From Alphaproteobacteria bacterium (GTDB taxonomy: Bacteria > Pseudomonadota > Alphaproteobacteria > UBA828): DNA of 64,000 bases. A model generated the notes under the pieces. The model ran no database searches. It saw only the letters and a program-made list of their open reading frames with translations, and was not told the origin of the DNA. Shown piece after piece: positions 41,944 to 48,415 of this stretch. Numbering within the stretch: the first letter of the stretch is position 1; each line of letters begins with the position of its first letter. The stretch lies in NCBI GenBank assembly GCA_965214705.1, contig OZ243972.1, forward strand, positions 960,001-1,024,000, given 5' to 3'. The translations under genes were made by a program, and so were the position numbers.

Positions 41944-42963
41944 CTAACGGAAGTGCGGGAGCACGTGGTCGGCGTAGGCCGCGACGATCTGCTCCTCGCC
42001 GCCGTTGGTAAGGTAGATGTTGAACTGGGTCACGCCGGCCGCCTCCAGCGCACGGATCTTCTCCACATGGGCCTCGGCCGGGCCGACCACGCAGAAGTCC
42101 TCGGTGATCTCGGGCGAGACGTAGGCACTGTTGTCTGACTCCAGCGCGGTGTGCTGGCGATAGTCGTAGCCCTCGTCGGCGCCCACACCCTCGCGCTCCG
42201 CAATGTAGGTGGTGAGGCTCTTCGGCACGAGGTCGGTGCCGGCGCCGTGGTGCTTCACGATGTCGGCCACGTGGTTGCCCACCAGCGCCGGGAACCACTT
42301 GGTCTGGGCGATCCCGGCCTCGCGGTCGCCGACCCAGACCGGTGCGCAGGCCATGACGCGGTAGTCCGCCATGTCGCGGCCTTCGGCGCGGCCGGCGGCG
42401 CGCGCCTGGTCCCCCATCCACTGGCAGAGGCCGACGTCGCCGAGCTGCACGATCAGCCCGTCGCCGACGCGGCCAGCCGCCGCCAGCGCACGCGGCCCGT
42501 AGGCCGCGACCCAGACCGGCATCTCGTAGCCGCCGGTCCAGTCGAACTGCACCGGCTCCGGCACGCCCTCGTAGCTCACCGCCTCGCCCCGCACCAGCGC
42601 CTTCATGGCGTGGCAGAACTCCTCCAGACGTGCCACCGTCGCCGGCCGCTTGCCGATCGCCCGCACGGCGCTGTCGCCGCGCCCCACGCCCATGTCGAAG
42701 CGGCCGTCCGACTGCACCGCCATCGCCCCGAACAGGCTCGCGGCCACCGACCATTCGCGGGTCATCGGGTTGGTGACGCAGGGGCCGAAGCGCAGCCGCT
42801 GTGTGTGGTCGATGGCGACCGCCATCTGTGGGTAAAGATCGCGCCACAGCGCGTGGCTGTCGAAGAACCAAGCGTAGTCGAAACCCGCCGCCTCGGCCTG
42901 CCTGCAGATGGCGACGATGCGATCCTTTTCGAGGTCGCCGCGAAAGGTGATGGCGAATTCCAT
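41944..42963 (-). CDS. LLM-class F420-dependent oxidoreductase (TIGR03842-like)
   Basis: AEAAGFDYAWFFDSH.LW, GPCVTNP.TR, GVGRGDSA, VAAYGPRAL, FPALVGNHVAD, GYDY..H; next to npdG. Confidence 0.85.
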   Translation of the reverse strand: MEFAITFRGDLEKDRIVAICRQAEAAGFDYAWFFDSHALWRDLYPQMAVAIDHTQRLRFGPCVTNPMTREWSVAASLFGAMAVQSDGRFDMGVGRGDSAVRAIGKRPATVARLEEFCHAMKALVRGEAVSYEGVPEPVQFDWTGGYEMPVWVAAYGPRALAAAGRVGDGLIVQLGDVGLCQWMGDQARAAGRAEGRDMADYRVMACAPVWVGDREAGIAQTKWFPALVGNHVADIVKHHGAGTDLVPKSLTTYIAEREGVGADEGYDYRQHTALESDNSAYVSPEITEDFCVVGPAEAHVEKIRALEAAGVTQFNIYLTNGGEEQIVAAYADHVLPHFR

Positions 42964-42974
42964 GATTGTCTCCT

Positions 42975-43643
42975 TTACCCGGCTTCCGGCCAGATCTGCA
43001 CGCCCGCGTGCTTGAAGCCCGTCGCCTTCGACATATTGAGGCGGATCAGCAGCGGTGTCAGCGCCTCAATGCAGCGCGCGCTCTCGGCCGGGCCGCAGTT
43101 GTAGGCGCGGGCACCGATGGTCTCGACCAAGTCCATCACCGCGCGCTTCGCCTCCAGGTCATCGCCGCAGACGAGGATGTCGCAGTTGATCGGCTGATCA
43201 AGTGCGGCAAGCACGTGGGCGGAGACGTTGTGGAGAGCGCCCACCACGGCGACGCCCTCGCCCAGCATCGCCTGCGCCGCCTCGGTCGCCGAGCCCTCGG
43301 GTGGCATCGCTGCCTTGCGGGGATTGCCGTCGGCGAGCGGCACGGCCATGTCAACCAGGATCTTGCCTTGCAACGCCTCGGTAAGCCCCGCGAGGGTCGC
43401 CTGGTGCGCGCTCCACGGTACCGCCAGCACGACCACGCGCTCGGCCCGCGCCACCGCGTCGGCGTTGGCGGCGCCTTCGATCGACCCCGGTGCATCAGGC
43501 ACGCCGGCTCTTAGATCGACGGCGATCTCCGCCGCGCGGGCGGCATCGCGCGAGCCGACCACGACGTCGATGCCGGCGAGTGCGCAGCGCTGCGCCAGCC
43601 CGCGGCCCTGAGGTCCGGTGCCTCCGATCACGGCGATTGCCAT
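42975..43643 (-). CDS. npdG: NADPH-dependent F420 reductase
   Basis: [50 protein letters not shown]. Confidence 0.9.
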
Positions 43644-44241: not shown

Positions 44242-44631
44242 TCACTCGGCGCCGGTGGCTTCCTTGAGATAGGCGATCAGGTTGTCGCGGTCCTTTTCCT
44301 TCCTGACCCCCTTGAACGCCATCTTGTTCTTCGGAATGTAACCCTTGGGATCGGCAATATAGGCTCTGATCGTCTCCTCGTCCCAGACGATTGCCGCGTC
44401 CTTCATCGCGTCCGAGTACTTCTTGAAGCCTTCGGCCGTGCCCGAGGTGCGGCCGAAGACGCCGTGGAGGTTCGGGCCCACCTTGTGCTTCCCGCCTTCC
44501 TTGACGGTGTGGCACACCTTGCACTTCTTGAAGACCTTCTTGCCCTTCTTCACATCAGCGGCAATGGCGGAGGCGCTTGCCGCCATCATGAAGGTGGCGA
44601 GGGCAACGGCGAGGACGTGTCGTGCGCGCAC
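44242..44631 (-). CDS. Class I cytochrome c (cytochrome c2-like), exported
   Basis: Signal peptide, [38 protein letters not shown] (axial Met). GTG at 44631 after AAGGAG. Confidence 0.93.
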
Positions 44632-44764
44632 GGGTATCTCCTTAGGTCTGGTCCCGATCATGCGGTGAACGCGCGAACATAGGCCGGGTTCGCACCCGCG
44701 ATCAAGGAGGCCATTCGGCCGGTGGCGCGCCGCTTCCGCGGAGCAGCGCGCCGCCGGCGGATGG

Positions 44765-46147
44765 CTACTGGACCCGGTACTCCTCGTCGAGGAAGAAGCG
44801 GCTGTCATAGTCCTCGACGCCAAGGTGGCACTCAGCGCAGAAGACGACGTTCTTGGCGCCCTTGCCGCCGGTCGTGCCGATCGTCCGGCCGCTCGGCATG
44901 ATCAGCGTGTAGCGCCAGTCGCCGGTATCGGCGTCGAAGCCGGCTTCCATCTTCTCCATCAGGAAGAGCGGCCCGGCGCCGATCTTGCCGTTGGGTTTGA
45001 CGGTGAAGCTGTCCTTGGCCAGAACGGTTCCGACGGGCGCTGGCCCCGCCTCTTCGAACTGGCTGTAATTGTCGGCGCCGATGTCGTTGGCGTAGTTGTT
45101 GACGTAGCGCGCGCCGTGGGTATCGGAGACGTAGGGTTGGGCCGCGACGTTCCGCCAATTCTGGTAGGACGCCGCCCACTGATTGCCCGACTTGGCGTAT
45201 CCCTCGGCCATGACCGCACTGATGCAGGCGTAGGCGTCTCGGGCCTCGTCTGCGGTCAACTCGACCTCTTCGCCGGCCGCGCAGGGGTTGCATGGATTGC
45301 AGGCGCCGCACGGGCCGCAAGGGTTCGCCGCACACGGGTTGCAGGGGTTGCACGGTCCACAGGGGTCGCAGGGATTGGCCGCTGCGCACGGATTGCAGGG
45401 GTTGCAAGGGCCGCATGGGTTGCACGGCTCGCACGGGCTGCAGGGACCACAGGGGCTGCAGGCTGCGGCGCAAGGGTTGCAAGGCCCACAAGGGTTGCAG
45501 GCTGCAGCACAGGGATTGCACGGATTACAGGGAGCGCACGGTCCGCAAGGGCTACAAGCACTCGCGCAGGGATTGCATGGACCGCAAGGAGCACATGGCC
45601 CGCAGGGGCTGCCAGCGGCAGCGAGGCGCGGAACCACGCAGTCCGAACTGACCGCAGCGCCCGCCGCGCACGGGTTGCAGGCGCCGCACGGCCCGCAGGC
45701 GCCCGCACAGGGATTGCAAGGGTTGCACGGTCCGCAAGGGCCGCAGGCGCCCGCACAGGGGTTACAGGGCCCACAGGGGTTGCATGCAGCTGCGCAGGGG
45801 TTGCACGGATCACATGGATTACACGGTCCGCAAGCACCACAAGCGGCGTCACAGGGGTTGCAAGGATTACACGGCCCACACGCAGACGCGCAGGGATTGC
45901 ACGGTTCGCACGGACTGCATGGTCCGCGAGGTCCGCATACCGCCGCGCACGGGTTGCACGGACTGCATGGTCCGCACGGGTTGCAGGAGGCGAAGAGCAG
46001 CACTCCCGGATCCTGATGCTGCGGGGTCGCCGCCGGGCTTTCGCCGGTGGATGTACCGGCCGTTGCGTGGCCGCCACTGGTGGCGACCGCGAGCCCGATG
46101 ACCACAGGGACCACCGTTCCGGCAAGCAAGGTGTTCGAGCGTGGCAT
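44765..46147 (-). CDS. Exported cytochrome P460-family protein with a long N-terminal Cys-X-Pro repeat region
   Basis: ATG at 46147 after AGGGAGG, then a signal-like N-terminus and about 235 aa of CxP repeats. C-terminal domain has [36 protein letters not shown] and a C-terminal CAECH. Confidence 0.85.
45281..45985 (-). repeat. Coding tandem repeat, (Cys-X-Pro)n in two blocks
   Basis: 9-bp periodic TGY-NNN-CCN units; two blocks separated by [18 protein letters not shown]. Confidence 0.95.
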
Positions 46148-46279
46148 GTCGGGCCTCCCTTGATGGCGTGATGGCGGCACTCTGAGCGAATTGTCGGCGA
46201 GCGCATGGTGCGGGGCAAACCCCTTCGACTCAAATTTTTGTGATTCCCGTGCCGGGTGAGCGGCAGCTAGGCTGCTGCA

Positions 46280-47155
46280 ATGGTTTTCTCCCGCGCACTT
46301 CTTGCGGTCTGTCTCGCGACCTGTGGCCTGGTCCTCGGGGGCGCTTCATATGCTGGTTCGGTGCCAGTTCCAGTCCTGGCGGAGGTCCCGGCCGGCCCCT
46401 TCATCGCGGGCTCCGACGCGGCCGAGCGGGAATACGCCTACCAGCTCGACGAGGCGGCCTACGGCCACTCCCGAACGCGGGAGCGCGGCTGGTACGATCG
46501 CGAGCGCCCGCGCGGAACCAAGTCACTGGACGGCTTCTTCATCATGCGCACGCTGATCACCAATGCCCAGTACGCGGCGTTCGTGGATGCCACGGGCCAC
46601 CGCGTGCCCGATGTCGATCCCGAGACCTGGCGCGGCTACAGGCTGATCCACCCTTACGAGCGCACCCGCCGCCACGCGTGGACGGAGGGAGTTCCGCCGC
46701 CTGGGCGCGAAAACCATCCCGTGGTCATGGTCTCGCACGACGACGCCAATGCCTACGCGGCCTGGCTCTCGGCCGAGACCGGGCGCGCCTGGCGTCTCCC
46801 CACCGAGCTGGAATGGGAGAAGGCCGCACGCGGCACGGACGGCCGCAACTTCCCCTGGGGCGATACGTTCGACCCAGCGCTGCTCAACAGCCACGATGCC
46901 GGTCCCTTCGACACGCTGCCGGTCGGGAGCTTTCCTGCCGGTGCAAGCCTTTACGGCCTCCTCGATGCGGCAGGCATGGTCTTCGAGTGGACCGCCTCGC
47001 CCGGCAATACGGGGCGCTTTCTGGTGAAGGGCGGATCGTGGGACGACAGCGGCTGCGGCATCTGCCGCCCTGCGGCACGGCACGGCCGGCCGGCGGACAT
47101 CAAGCACATCCTCGTCGGCTTCCGCCTCGTCGTCGATCCGGGCGCGGGGGGTTAG
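46280..47155 (+). CDS. Formylglycine-generating enzyme (SUMF1/FGE-sulfatase) family protein, probably exported
   Basis: Signal-like N-terminus, [57 protein letters not shown]. Confidence 0.9.
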
Positions 47156-47237: not shown

Positions 47238-47999
47238 ATGGCCCAGGCTTCAGCGGCGAAGAATGAGCGGCAGGAGGAGACCCGCCACCTCGACATGGCG
47301 ACACAGCCGGTGAAGCGGCTGCGCATGATGCTCGCCGCCGGCGAGGAGGTGCAGGAGGTCGAGCGGGTGCTCGGCAGAACCGGCGATAATGTGGTGAGCG
47401 AGCTGCTGCGCGGGCGCGGGACGTTCTACGAGTGGGACCATTACCCGAAAGGGGACGTCTTCGACGGTCAGAGCCACTCCCAGTATTTCTACCACGCCCA
47501 TCCCGGCGGCTTCCGGGATACCGAGCACGGGCATTTCCACACCTTCGTGCGCGCCAAGGGGATGCCGCGCGGCATGAAGCCCGTGCGCCGCAAGAAGCGC
47601 GACAAGTGGCCCATGGGTGACAAAGCGCTCACCCACGTCATCGCCATCTCGATGGGGTCGAAGGGTCAGCCTCTCAGGCTTTTCACCACCAACCGCTGGG
47701 TCACCGGCGAGACCTGGTATCGCGCGGATGACGTGGCAAAGGTGATCGGCCGCTTCGTCATCGACCACGCCCGCCCGTCATGGCCGACCAACCGCTGGGT
47801 CGGCGCCATGATCCGCCTCTTCTGGCCGCAGATCATCCTGCTGGTCAAGGCGCGTGATCAGGTGATCGAGAACTGGGCTGCCCAGAATCCGAAGCAGGAT
47901 ACCCTCGAAGATCGCCGCCTCGAGGTCGTCTCGCAGGCCGAGGTGGATATCGAGGCCCAGATCGCCGCAGTCAAGGCGGCCCTCGCCGCGAGAACCTGA
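47238..47999 (+). CDS. His-rich conserved protein, DUF6969-like
   Basis: WDHYPKGDVFD, QYFYHAH, EHGHFHTF, THVIAISM, LFTTNRWVTGETW, LEDRRLEV. Family recalled from motifs, not verified by search. Confidence 0.75.
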   Translation: MAQASAAKNERQEETRHLDMATQPVKRLRMMLAAGEEVQEVERVLGRTGDNVVSELLRGRGTFYEWDHYPKGDVFDGQSHSQYFYHAHPGGFRDTEHGHFHTFVRAKGMPRGMKPVRRKKRDKWPMGDKALTHVIAISMGSKGQPLRLFTTNRWVTGETWYRADDVAKVIGRFVIDHARPSWPTNRWVGAMIRLFWPQIILLVKARDQVIENWAAQNPKQDTLEDRRLEVVSQAEVDIEAQIAAVKAALAART

Positions 48000-48041
48000 G
48001 GCGCAGTCGGCCCGCCGCTGTCACGGCTCCCGTACCGCAAC

Positions 48042-48069
48042 AAAGAACGCCGCCTCTCCCGAGGCGGCG
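48042..48069 (-). terminator. Rho-independent terminator of the small Cys-rich peptide gene
   Basis: CGCCGCCTC-N4-GAGGCGGCG stem followed on the minus strand by TTCTTT. Confidence 0.75.
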
Positions 48070-48100
48070 CCCTTGGATACCGTTGTCGTTACTCTCAAAC

Positions 48101-48415
48101 TTACTCGGCAGCACACGGATCGCACGGGTTGCAAGCCGCGCACGGGTCGCACGGGTTGCAGGCCGCGCACGGGTCGCACGGATTGCAGGCATCCGCGACA
48201 ACGATGCGCTCGTCCAAGGAAGATTCGCACGGATTGCAACCGCCGCATGGGTTGCAAGCCTCGCACGGGTTACAGGCCCCGCACGGGTTGCACGGATCCT
48301 CGTGCGAGTCCGCAACGACGATCGGCTGCTCCCCAGCGGACACGGCCGACGGCGCAAGAGCGGCGCCGGCCGCCATGGTAACGATACTCACGGCGACCAC
48401 TGTTTCCTTGATCAT
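48101..48415 (-). CDS. Small exported Cys-rich peptide with CNPC/CDPC repeats (104 aa, 17 Cys)
   Basis: Strong GAGGAGGAG RBS, Sec-type signal ending AVSA, two IVVAD-led Cys blocks, its own terminator. Confidence 0.85.

Follow-up and report, generated by a model that had tools for sequence, protein, structure and literature searches.

We analysed a single window, the whole 64,000-nt stretch at forward-strand positions 960,001 to 1,024,000 of contig OZ243972.1 (assembly GCA_965214705.1), from an Alphaproteobacteria bacterium of the UBA828 lineage. On its minus strand, at 44765..46147, lies a gene for a cytochrome P460-family protein in which a C-terminal haem domain is preceded by a long arm packed with cysteines. 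Around it stand genes for a protein of the formylglycine-generating enzyme (FGE)-sulfatase superfamily, a DUF6969 protein, a small free Cys-repeat protein and a class I cytochrome c. The P460 coding sequence spans 460 aa, from the ATG at 46147 to the stop codon at 44765-44767. The listing of open reading frames (ORFs) gives a longer minus-strand frame, 44765..46180, of 471 aa from an in-frame GTG at 46180 (+11 aa), but ATG 46147 is the start conserved in 15 orthologues of the genus (MPRSN...), and the GTG is unnecessary. A hydrophobic segment with an A-x-A-like site, encoded at 46049..46147 and present family-wide, is kept in orthologues and is predicted from its sequence to be an export signal or membrane anchor. 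It is followed by Cys arm 1 (45668..45985, minus strand; 33 Cys in 106 aa), built of CNPC and CGPC units with AAA, AGA or ASA spacers, and, beyond a short segment containing CVVPRL, by Cys arm 2 (45281..45604, minus strand; 34 Cys in 108 aa).

The 471-aa translation holds 71 cysteines in all: 33 within residues 66-171, C181 of CVVPRL, 34 within residues 193-300, C319 and the two of CAECH, which at residues 448-452 is the sole C..CH. A preliminary description of the locus had counted 33, 1 and 34 cysteines by hand, placed one at nearly every third residue and named CAECH as the only haem site. The exact count agrees with it on each point, with 68 Cys in the 235 aa of arm and strap (28.9% Cys, 23.8% Pro) and with 53 of the successive Cys-Cys spacings in residues 66-319 (n = 68) measuring three residues and nine measuring four. 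Overlapping C-x-P-C words number 50, among them 24 CNPC and 15 CGPC. As a measure of chance, 84,341 ORFs, read from stop to stop and 50 aa or longer, were taken from the six frames of the 7.9-Mb genome to which the window belongs. Just six contain at least four CxPC or at least five NPC words; the P460 ORF ranks first with 50 CxPC words, and the runner-up, with 10, is the related small gene of the same cluster.

The poly-Cys P460 gene is real and conserved

The poly-Cys P460 gene is genuine and conserved, and encodes a c-type haem protein predicted to be exported. The preliminary description had raised the possibility that the repeat was misassembled, or that translation began downstream of it, and an artefact of this kind, including a wrong reading frame, deserves to be considered. 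Low-complexity, GC-rich DNA does give long ORFs in several frames, and such ORFs cross the repeat here at 44825-46171 and 45288-46016 on the plus strand and at 45256-46233 on the minus strand, with, for example, a collagen-like HGLQGPQGL reading. These are by-products of periodic GC-rich sequence and not genes. The arm DNA itself is non-repetitive: 24 CNP units are written as 11 different 9-mers and 16 CGP units as 13, the longest exact direct repeat within the 705-nt arm is 20 nt, and Tandem Repeats Finder matches its units at 60-86% only. GC content at third codon positions is 0.66 in the arm; the haem domain reaches 0.88 and the neighbouring genes 0.80-0.92. Synonymous sites throughout the arm (45281-45985) look scrambled, as if selection acts against exact DNA repeats.

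Public contigs reproduce the sequence. A 3125-nt contig (run X1) spans 44400-46500 with no differences, although it may be the source itself. Zero-difference contigs from another sample of the same study (run X2) tile 44947-45712 and 46005-46500, and contigs from another study (run X5) cover most of the stretch with 0-14 differences each. In the latter run, a near-identical strain carries a 9-nt in-frame insertion after 45429, inside arm 2, which is a repeat-length polymorphism and the sole length change in these two further samples. Contigs from an RNA library (run X18) are only 90-99% alike and came from relatives rather than this strain, so that they are uninformative on its expression; they cover the haem domain, the FGE-like gene and the 5' end but hardly reach the repeats.

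An orthologue is present in 19 of 20 genomes of the genus, and the lone genome without one is 62% complete. Across 15 genus loci the frame, the N-terminus with its signal segment (MPRSN/MPRTK...), the strap and the haem domain are continuous despite many indels, while the number of cysteines ahead of the haem domain ranges from 20 to 68. Compared with nine orthologues over the aligned arm, synonymous differences exceed non-synonymous ones (e.g. 42 versus 16), although the codon register is ambiguous inside the repeats and this excess is soft evidence. Non-synonymous codons number 11-35 per orthologue pair, and those touching Cys 0-4. Haem c can be attached only to an exported domain, and since the one export signal, itself kept among orthologues, is encoded ahead of the repeats, translation is unlikely to begin beyond them. 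Taken with the matching contigs and the non-repetitive DNA, this makes an artefact of assembly, frame or start highly improbable.

The haem domain is of the P460 type by sequence

The C-terminal domain (44768..45280, minus strand) has the cytochrome P460/c'-beta fold. The family assignment, made in the preliminary description from the letters alone and there left open to the objection that no profile might match, is borne out by Pfam: Cytochrome_P460 (PF16694) matches residues 338-460 at 34.5 bits (cutoff 27). The protein is covered by no NCBIfam model. With a 100-sequence alignment, AlphaFold2 models residues 290-460 at a predicted local distance difference test score (pLDDT) of 95-98. Foldseek matches the model, at a probability of 1.00 throughout, to 7ead (template modelling score, TM, 0.70), 6hiu and 9hrk (0.67-0.68), 6hih (0.66) and 2je2 (0.48). 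The haem c site CAECH (44825-44839, minus strand) is invariant in both family alignments.

The closest match in both structure and sequence is thus a cytochrome c'-beta, that of Thermus thermophilus (7ead; profile E 9e-8), with those of M. capsulatus (6hih) and N. europaea (7s5o) in the same group. Table 2 of a review lists Lys70 and Lys78 as the cross-linking residues of cytochromes P460 and Phe61 and Met79 as their c'-beta counterparts (PMC11928373). A profile of 47 short homologues pairs the Lys of LAKD in the window protein (Lys378 in the 460-aa numbering; codon 45014-45016, minus strand) with the lysines of GTVTVKE (2je2) and GAILVK (9hrk). On the c'-beta side it pairs with F61 of 7ead by profile and with the Met of SIVIME in 7s5o by phmmer. 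The GTVLAKD lysine, previously placed at the cross-link position by eye, thus aligns with Lys70 of the Nitrosomonas protein (2je2) and Lys78 of 9hrk. It is conserved in at least 90% of sequences in both alignments, where c'-beta proteins have Phe or Met. Because of this lysine, the protein is by sequence P460-type rather than c'-beta-type.

With the cytochromes P460 of N. europaea (2je2/2je3) and M. capsulatus (6hiu/9hrk) the domain shares the beta-sheet fold, the C-terminal CxxCH and the Lys70/Lys78 position, at 20-22% identity; the covalent haem-Lys cross-link and any activity are here predictions from sequence. What sets the window protein apart is an N-terminal extension of ~290 residues that holds 68 Cys and the CVVPRL strap, for which a disulfide is probable. 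The solved proteins come from a nitrifier and a methanotroph, whereas the relatives named in records belong to Rhodospirillales, Kiloniellales, Sneathiellales and allied Alphaproteobacteria. Hydroxylamine oxidation needs a distal carboxylate (Glu96/Asp102). HMMER pairs E398 of the window protein with Glu96 of the N. europaea protein, but the register anchored on Lys differs: counted from the following conserved Lys, the N. europaea and M. capsulatus carboxylates stand at -4, where the poly-Cys family has Phe. E398 and K399 are both conserved in the pocket strand.

A conserved strap divides a fast-evolving arm

The segment between the two arms (45605..45667, minus strand) had been described as unique. 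By sequence comparison, CVVPRL is instead a family-wide conserved strap that splits the arm. In the 100-sequence alignment C170 of CVVPRL (460-aa numbering; codon 45638-45640) is kept in 90% or more of the sequences, and C308, which lies in AYAC on the first helix of the domain (codon 45224-45226), is invariant. Within the N-terminal 290 aa the strap alone is modelled with confidence (blocks at pLDDT 68-93, with a strand at 167-171 and a helix at 173-179), while both Cys arms fall below 50. Many short, repeat-less relatives retain just two extra cysteines, the equivalents of C170 and C308. An upstream Cys is present in 147 of 149 relatives that have the helix Cys, versus 31 of 78 that lack it; 13 of these 31 have only one, and the examples shown mostly carry a cytoplasmic cyclase domain. 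On this covariation and the model, the strap is probably stapled by a C170-C308 disulfide to helix 1 of the haem domain.

A search for long proteins with the haem domain gave 167 matches; 10 or more cysteines precede the domain in 104 of the 120 listed. When length is left free, the best 148 representatives comprise 19 with at least 10 such cysteines, nine with 3-9, 97 with fewer than three and 23 fragments, so that only part of the subfamily is marked by arms. Of 552 pattern matches in species-representative genomes, 522 encode relatives; 80 loci were kept as the locus set, and the sub-counts below refer to its complete or full-flank members. All 80 are alphaproteobacterial, with a few titles labelled otherwise, and they include Rhodospirillales, Kiloniellales, Sneathiellales, Pelagibius, Aestuariispira insulae, Minwuia and Anderseniella.

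The N-terminal two thirds of the protein are a fast-evolving poly-Cys arm. The 70 complete loci encode 18-88 arm cysteines (median 38), so the 68 of the window protein are high yet below the maximum. Composition varies as well: the window protein uses CNPC/CGPC without charged residues, most relatives use NPCAAK or CNPCAAKK, and further dialects are NPCAA (one Cys per five residues), KPCAPC and (Cys-Gly-Ala)n without Pro or Asn. All share cysteines set among small residues, for the most part at period 3. The existence of (Cys-Gly-Ala)n dialects makes Pro dispensable. In the genus, the number of cysteines ahead of the haem domain is odd in six of 16 orthologues, or in 10 of 16 once C308 is added. 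Parity is thus not conserved, which speaks against a design of fully paired intramolecular disulfides.

The arm is a portable module

The poly-Cys arm occurs on P460 homologues, on a second type of cytochrome c and as a free protein, and in this sense is a portable module. The free form lies in the same cluster, 2 kb from the P460 gene and convergent with the DUF6969 gene: a genome scan and translation give a small protein, predicted to be secreted, at 48101..48415 on the minus strand (104 aa, 18 Cys). Its signal peptide is followed by two cassettes, each led by IVVAD, namely (CNPCxx)4 and IVVADA(CNPCDPCAA)3. Upstream of its ATG, the stretch GAGGAGGAG is by eye a ribosome-binding site. After the gene, a terminator-like hairpin with a U-rich tail lies at 48041..48072 (minus strand). 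The fold of 48035-48100 reaches -31.7 kcal/mol (z -4.05), with none of 200 shuffles as stable; a simple promoter and terminator scan missed this hairpin, giving no promoter and nothing on the minus strand.

The small protein has 61 homologues, all unnamed, with orthologues at the same place in the genus loci. It belongs to no Pfam family (PF22857 8.8 bits against 27; PF03940 7.4 bits), and an Atlas search returned unnamed clusters only, with scores of at most 0.84. Its own genome holds a second copy (C2:30008-30466, minus strand) and a fragment (C3:2316668-2316886, minus strand), neither near FGE-like genes. Small Cys-repeat ORFs are found in 44 of the scanned loci L013-L117, some of which may be 5' pieces of a P460 gene.

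Used as a query, arm 1 matches 325 proteins, of which 105 are new and 55 of these end in a P460-type domain. Another 38 of the 105 (e.g. P0342, P0349, P0355 and P0384) show a sister architecture, in which a signal and a Cys arm are followed by a different, monohaem cytochrome c core and then by a second Cys arm at the C-terminus. This core carries the motifs C..CH, PH.V.M and DEMVQFCM..PM (QFC[ML] conserved); it scores 24-41 bits against the Pfam SoxA/TsdA model (cutoff 27) and marginally matches CCP_MauG as well. When 401 genomes of the class were searched with P0384, just two repeat-level matches were found; the 80 cytochrome-c-fused loci discussed here (L140-L219) were taken from metagenome contigs. 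LysM is fused to some arm-bearing P460 relatives. Arm-less P460-type domains, 44-55% identical, are fused to class 3 adenylate cyclase, caspase or TIR modules, an arrangement whose sequence suggests an extracytoplasmic ligand sensor.

Neighbouring genes

Divergent from the P460 gene, at 46280..47155 on the plus strand, lies the gene for the FGE-sulfatase-superfamily protein (291 aa; PF03781, 154.5 bits). Its N-terminus is hydrophobic and signal-like in all 42 orthologues examined, and GGSWDDxGCGxCRxAARHxRP, including C259 and C262, is invariant in 39. The closest solved relatives are ToxD (7spq, E 6e-34), CalU17, OvsA and EgtB, and the match to structures of FGE itself is confined to residues 141-240 and no stronger than E 1e-15. 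No match to an NCBIfam model passes the cutoff. The neighbour shares with FGE the FGE-sulfatase domain and two cysteines in a C-terminal loop. The catalytic pair of FGE has Cx4C spacing, whereas that of the neighbour is CxxC; we take this CxxC loop to correspond to the copper-binding pair of FGE. Most arm cysteines resemble the sulfatase substrate motif CxPxR in having Pro at +2, but lack the Arg at +4, and the full motif is found in neither the P460 protein nor the small protein and in 8 of 274 NPC-rich proteins. A complex prediction of the FGE-like protein (residues 28-291) with the small protein (28-104) scored 0.01 and counts neither way.

The DUF6969 gene follows at 47238..47999 on the plus strand (253 aa, without an export signal; PF22308, 281 bits). 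Invariant residues of the protein form a His/Asp/Glu cluster (H68, D73, D76, H86, H88, E96, H99, H101 and H133). Its AlphaFold2 model is confident (pLDDT 91), and no structural counterpart came from Foldseek (nothing at E of at most 0.001) or VIA-align (helix pairs only, Z of at most 7.2 over ~57 residues). Sequence searches gave no PDB match and no NCBIfam model, and in the Atlas DUF6969 clusters only. Elsewhere in the genome there is neither another P460 or DUF6969 gene nor a close copy of the FGE-like one.

The two genes occur together in all 15 genus loci. Outside the genus, the 44 loci with more than 3 kb on both flanks comprise 21 with both genes, three with DUF6969 only and 20 with neither; over all 80 P460 loci an FGE-like gene is present in 46 and DUF6969 in 48, in varying gene order. 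Approached from the other side, an even sample of 300 class genomes yielded 25 with an FGE-like orthologue, and a Cys-repeat ORF lies nearby in 17 of these (11 of 16 with full flanks), five of the 17 holding the free form only, without a P460 gene. One locus (L113) combines the FGE-like gene, DUF6969 and a free small Cys-repeat ORF. Among the cytochrome-c-fused loci, DUF6969 is found in 37 of 80 and the FGE-like gene in 15 of 80, or in 19 and 9 of the 26 with full flanks. DUF6969 also occurs in five relatives where the query found no P460 relative. Across both kinds of Cys-arm haem protein, DUF6969 is the most constant neighbour.

About 100 bp downstream of the P460 gene, a class I cytochrome c of the c550/CycA-like type (139 aa; PF00034) is encoded at 44242..44661 on the minus strand, from ATG 44661; the NCBIfam Cyt550 model matches it below cutoff. 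It follows the P460 gene in 25 of 80 loci, the genus included, and is a possible electron partner. The link is weak, because the cytochrome c also adjoins apt where the P460 gene is absent from the part of the locus retrieved. Other neighbours are confined to sub-clades (counts of 80 loci): Sulf_transp (PF04143) in 10, a secreted 200-aa protein in 12, a DsbA-like protein in nine and MsrB in eight. Sulf_transp, DsbA-like and MsrB genes lend these sub-clades a theme of thiols and sulfur, in keeping with the thiol-array reading given below. In one sub-clade (L087, L093, L090, L109, L098, L088, L092 and L104) Sulf_transp and the 200-aa protein stand beside the FGE-like gene; in another (L056, L059, L071, L091, L068, L067, L062 and L058) MsrB lies upstream and the DsbA-like gene downstream.

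Relation to known systems

The haem domain is a known fold, whereas the arm module and its gene set appear undescribed. A term search of the review of cytochromes P460 and c'-beta found no mention of fusion, repeat, cysteine-rich, N-terminal or disulfide (PMC11928373). In the full-text literature, with subscription journals and supplements outside the search, no paper joins "cytochrome P460" with "cysteine-rich" or "formylglycine", none treats "DUF6969" and none concerns a CNPC repeat and the periplasm. Among the matches listed for FGE with cysteine-rich precursors of peptides that are made ribosomally and then modified post-translationally (RiPPs), none is by title or abstract on such repeats.

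Several systems nonetheless invite comparison. Like metallothioneins, to which the preliminary description likened it, and copper storage proteins (Csp), the arm is Cys-dense (29%), has C-x-x-C spacing and would suit thiolate clusters. It differs from them in being (by prediction) exported, in its 24% Pro, in lacking a confident fold and in being tethered to a haem domain. No metallothionein family matches, Pfam at E of at most 1 giving just Cytochrome_P460 and a sub-threshold MSSP. This MSSP match (PF03940, 15.6 against 21.2 bits) also qualifies the likeness to the CxP repeats of the Drosophila sperm-tail protein Mst87F noted earlier: the C-x-P periodicity is common to both, and the resemblance holds for composition and not for family membership. 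Two further ideas were dropped. A ferredoxin-like Fe-S reading of CxxCxxC does not suit Sec-exported haem c proteins, which are not known to receive Fe-S clusters, and a haem-regulatory Cys-Pro motif does not suit the order here, which is Pro-Cys or C-x-P.

In SoxY with SoxAX, and in TsdA, a c-type haem that makes S-S bonds serves a Cys in a flexible Gly/Ala-rich arm. The sister architecture carries the arms described here on a domain that matches the Pfam SoxA/TsdA model. SoxY has one Cys per arm, however, compared with dozens here; no sox genes lie nearby and the Pfam matches are marginal, and the resemblance is one of logic and not of membership. Bufferins, described as copper-chelating RiPPs with a Sec signal (PMC11626156), are likewise small Cys peptides with a Sec-type signal encoded beside an oxidative enzyme, in the context of periplasmic metal stress, and theirs is the closest published logic for peptides of this kind. 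Their enzyme, however, is an MNIO (DUF692) rather than FGE-like, and the peptides are without tandem Cys repeats. No MNIO is found among the 35 window ORFs scanned with Pfam (~26-64 kb).

Proposed function and alternative explanations

At a probability of about 0.5, we read the system in general terms as a periplasmic thiol array coupled to a tethered haem. The arms would form a high-capacity periplasmic array of thiols or thiolates that either holds a soft ligand, be it sulfane sulfur, NO or a metal ion of the Cu(I) type, or cycles between dithiol and disulfide, and the tethered haem, with its open site, would shuttle electrons between a soluble cytochrome c and the array or whatever it holds. 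The arm appears to be more than a linker, because it has been recruited to haem c domains of two unrelated folds and is made free beside the same partners; its function is probably coupled to haem redox chemistry. Dense thiolates would suit soft-metal binding, carriage of sulfane sulfur or NO, or a dithiol/disulfide reservoir, and the data choose none of these. The FGE-like protein would service the thiols, through copper-dependent thiol oxidation or metal hand-over and not formylglycine formation. Three features argue that it does not act as a classical FGE: CxPxR is absent, some dialects lack Pro, and the Cys pair is spaced CxxC. A copper-dependent activity directed at thiols is guessed at from the analogy with FGE chemistry. 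A narrower version, which we put forward tentatively and regard as doubtful, would see the arms, DUF6969 and the FGE-like protein as one undescribed periplasmic system in which the haem domain (P460-type here, a SoxA/TsdA-like cytochrome c elsewhere) oxidatively loads and unloads a ligand on dozens of cysteines of a swinging arm. Such an arm could act as a covalent carrier in the manner of SoxY, though polyvalent and bound to a haem enzyme of its own, with sulfane sulfur, NO or a soft metal as its ligand.

A number of points weigh against the thiol-array reading and its gene set. The FGE-like and DUF6969 genes are both missing within 6 kb in 20 of the 44 full-flank loci outside the genus. Four loci (L114-L117) have DUF6969 without a P460 or FGE-like gene in the part of the locus retrieved, three of them with apt or cytochrome c adjoining, and part of the synteny in the genus may for this reason be inherited gene order. 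The genomes behind the sub-clade neighbours are related and hence not independent, the synonymous excess in the arm is soft for the reason given above, and no metal-resistance, sox, nir, nor or nos genes are among the window ORFs scanned. We infer the ligand, the redox state and the contact between arm and haem. The periplasm, moreover, is oxidising, and known periplasmic Cu(I) binders mostly rely on Met and His. Characterised cytochromes P460 carry no thiol arm and oxidise hydroxylamine (PMC11928373).

One alternative is that the arm is a structural tether or polymer, chemically passive, which either fixes how far the haem domain can reach or anchors it in the envelope; it could take the form of a chain of small CxxC disulfide loops, a polyproline-like rod or an intermolecular disulfide cross-linker, the last being the disulfide-polymerising arm proposed in the preliminary description. 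Such a part would tolerate what we see of the arm, namely a length that varies among close species (20-68 Cys in one genus, 18-88 over 70 loci), a composition with several dialects and no confident AlphaFold2 structure. Odd Cys counts are common and would make intermolecular bonds possible, and the LysM-bearing relatives suggest attachment in the cell wall space. A tether has no use, however, in free small secreted proteins made of the same repeats, which have nothing to tether, or in the arms on both sides of the cytochrome c domain, the C-terminal one ending free. Cysteines are, besides, almost never replaced between orthologues, and dedicated neighbour genes are conserved, so we consider a purely structural role possible though doubtful. 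The same neighbour genes would be explained differently if the arm were a modification substrate, with the FGE-like enzyme and DUF6969 converting its cysteines to formylglycine or another product and the arms and multi-cassette small proteins acting as RiPP-like precursors of a reactive or chelating polymer. Consistent with this are the adjacency of an FGE-like gene in 46 of 80 loci, a Cys-repeat ORF near it in 17 of 25 FGE-centred loci, the signal-like N-terminus of all 42 FGE-like orthologues, the invariant Cys pair in the loop read as the copper-binding pair of FGE, and the cassette build of the small proteins, with IVVAD before each cassette. The lack of CxPxR in the P460 and small proteins and its rarity among NPC-rich proteins (8 of 274), arms of (CGA)n entirely without Pro, an enzyme nearer to ToxD, CalU17, OvsA and EgtB than to FGE and with its pair in CxxC spacing, and the persistence of DUF6969 without the FGE-like gene (19 versus 9 of 26 loci) make this reading rather unlikely.

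Attention may also be turned from the arm to the haem, as in an N-oxide enzyme with a scavenger tail, whose haem domain would, like known P460 and c'-beta proteins, oxidise hydroxylamine or bind NO while the arm only mops up NO or reactive by-products, for example by S-nitrosation. The Lys at the cross-link position, the conserved E398 and K399 in the pocket strand and the cytochrome c gene downstream would all fit, and in relatives the domain is joined to adenylate cyclase, caspase and TIR modules, as expected of a ligand sensor. Yet these arms also sit on a non-P460 cytochrome c and exist free, none of the window genes scanned nearby belongs to nitrification or denitrification, and the register of the distal carboxylate (E398 versus Glu96) is ambiguous; we regard this explanation as improbable.

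Cytochromes P460 have been studied as small stand-alone enzymes of nitrifiers and methanotrophs. The large alphaproteobacterial branch described here, known mostly from metagenome bins, has the cross-link-position Lys together with up to 88 thiols, and this array recurs on another type of cytochrome and, by itself, as a secreted protein. It offers entry points to the role of P460-type haem outside nitrification, to the function of DUF6969 and to the substrate of an exported FGE-superfamily enzyme. If the arms do bind metals or carry sulfur, they would represent a new mechanism of periplasmic metal or sulfur handling. The gene also shows clearly how a highly repetitive protein can be written in deliberately non-repetitive DNA.

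Wider surroundings

The wider surroundings of the cluster in the window are housekeeping genes. Downstream of apt, at 41944-43643 on the minus strand, lie a luciferase-like monooxygenase and an F420-type NADP oxidoreductase; the pair is syntenic in the genus and unlinked to the cluster elsewhere.

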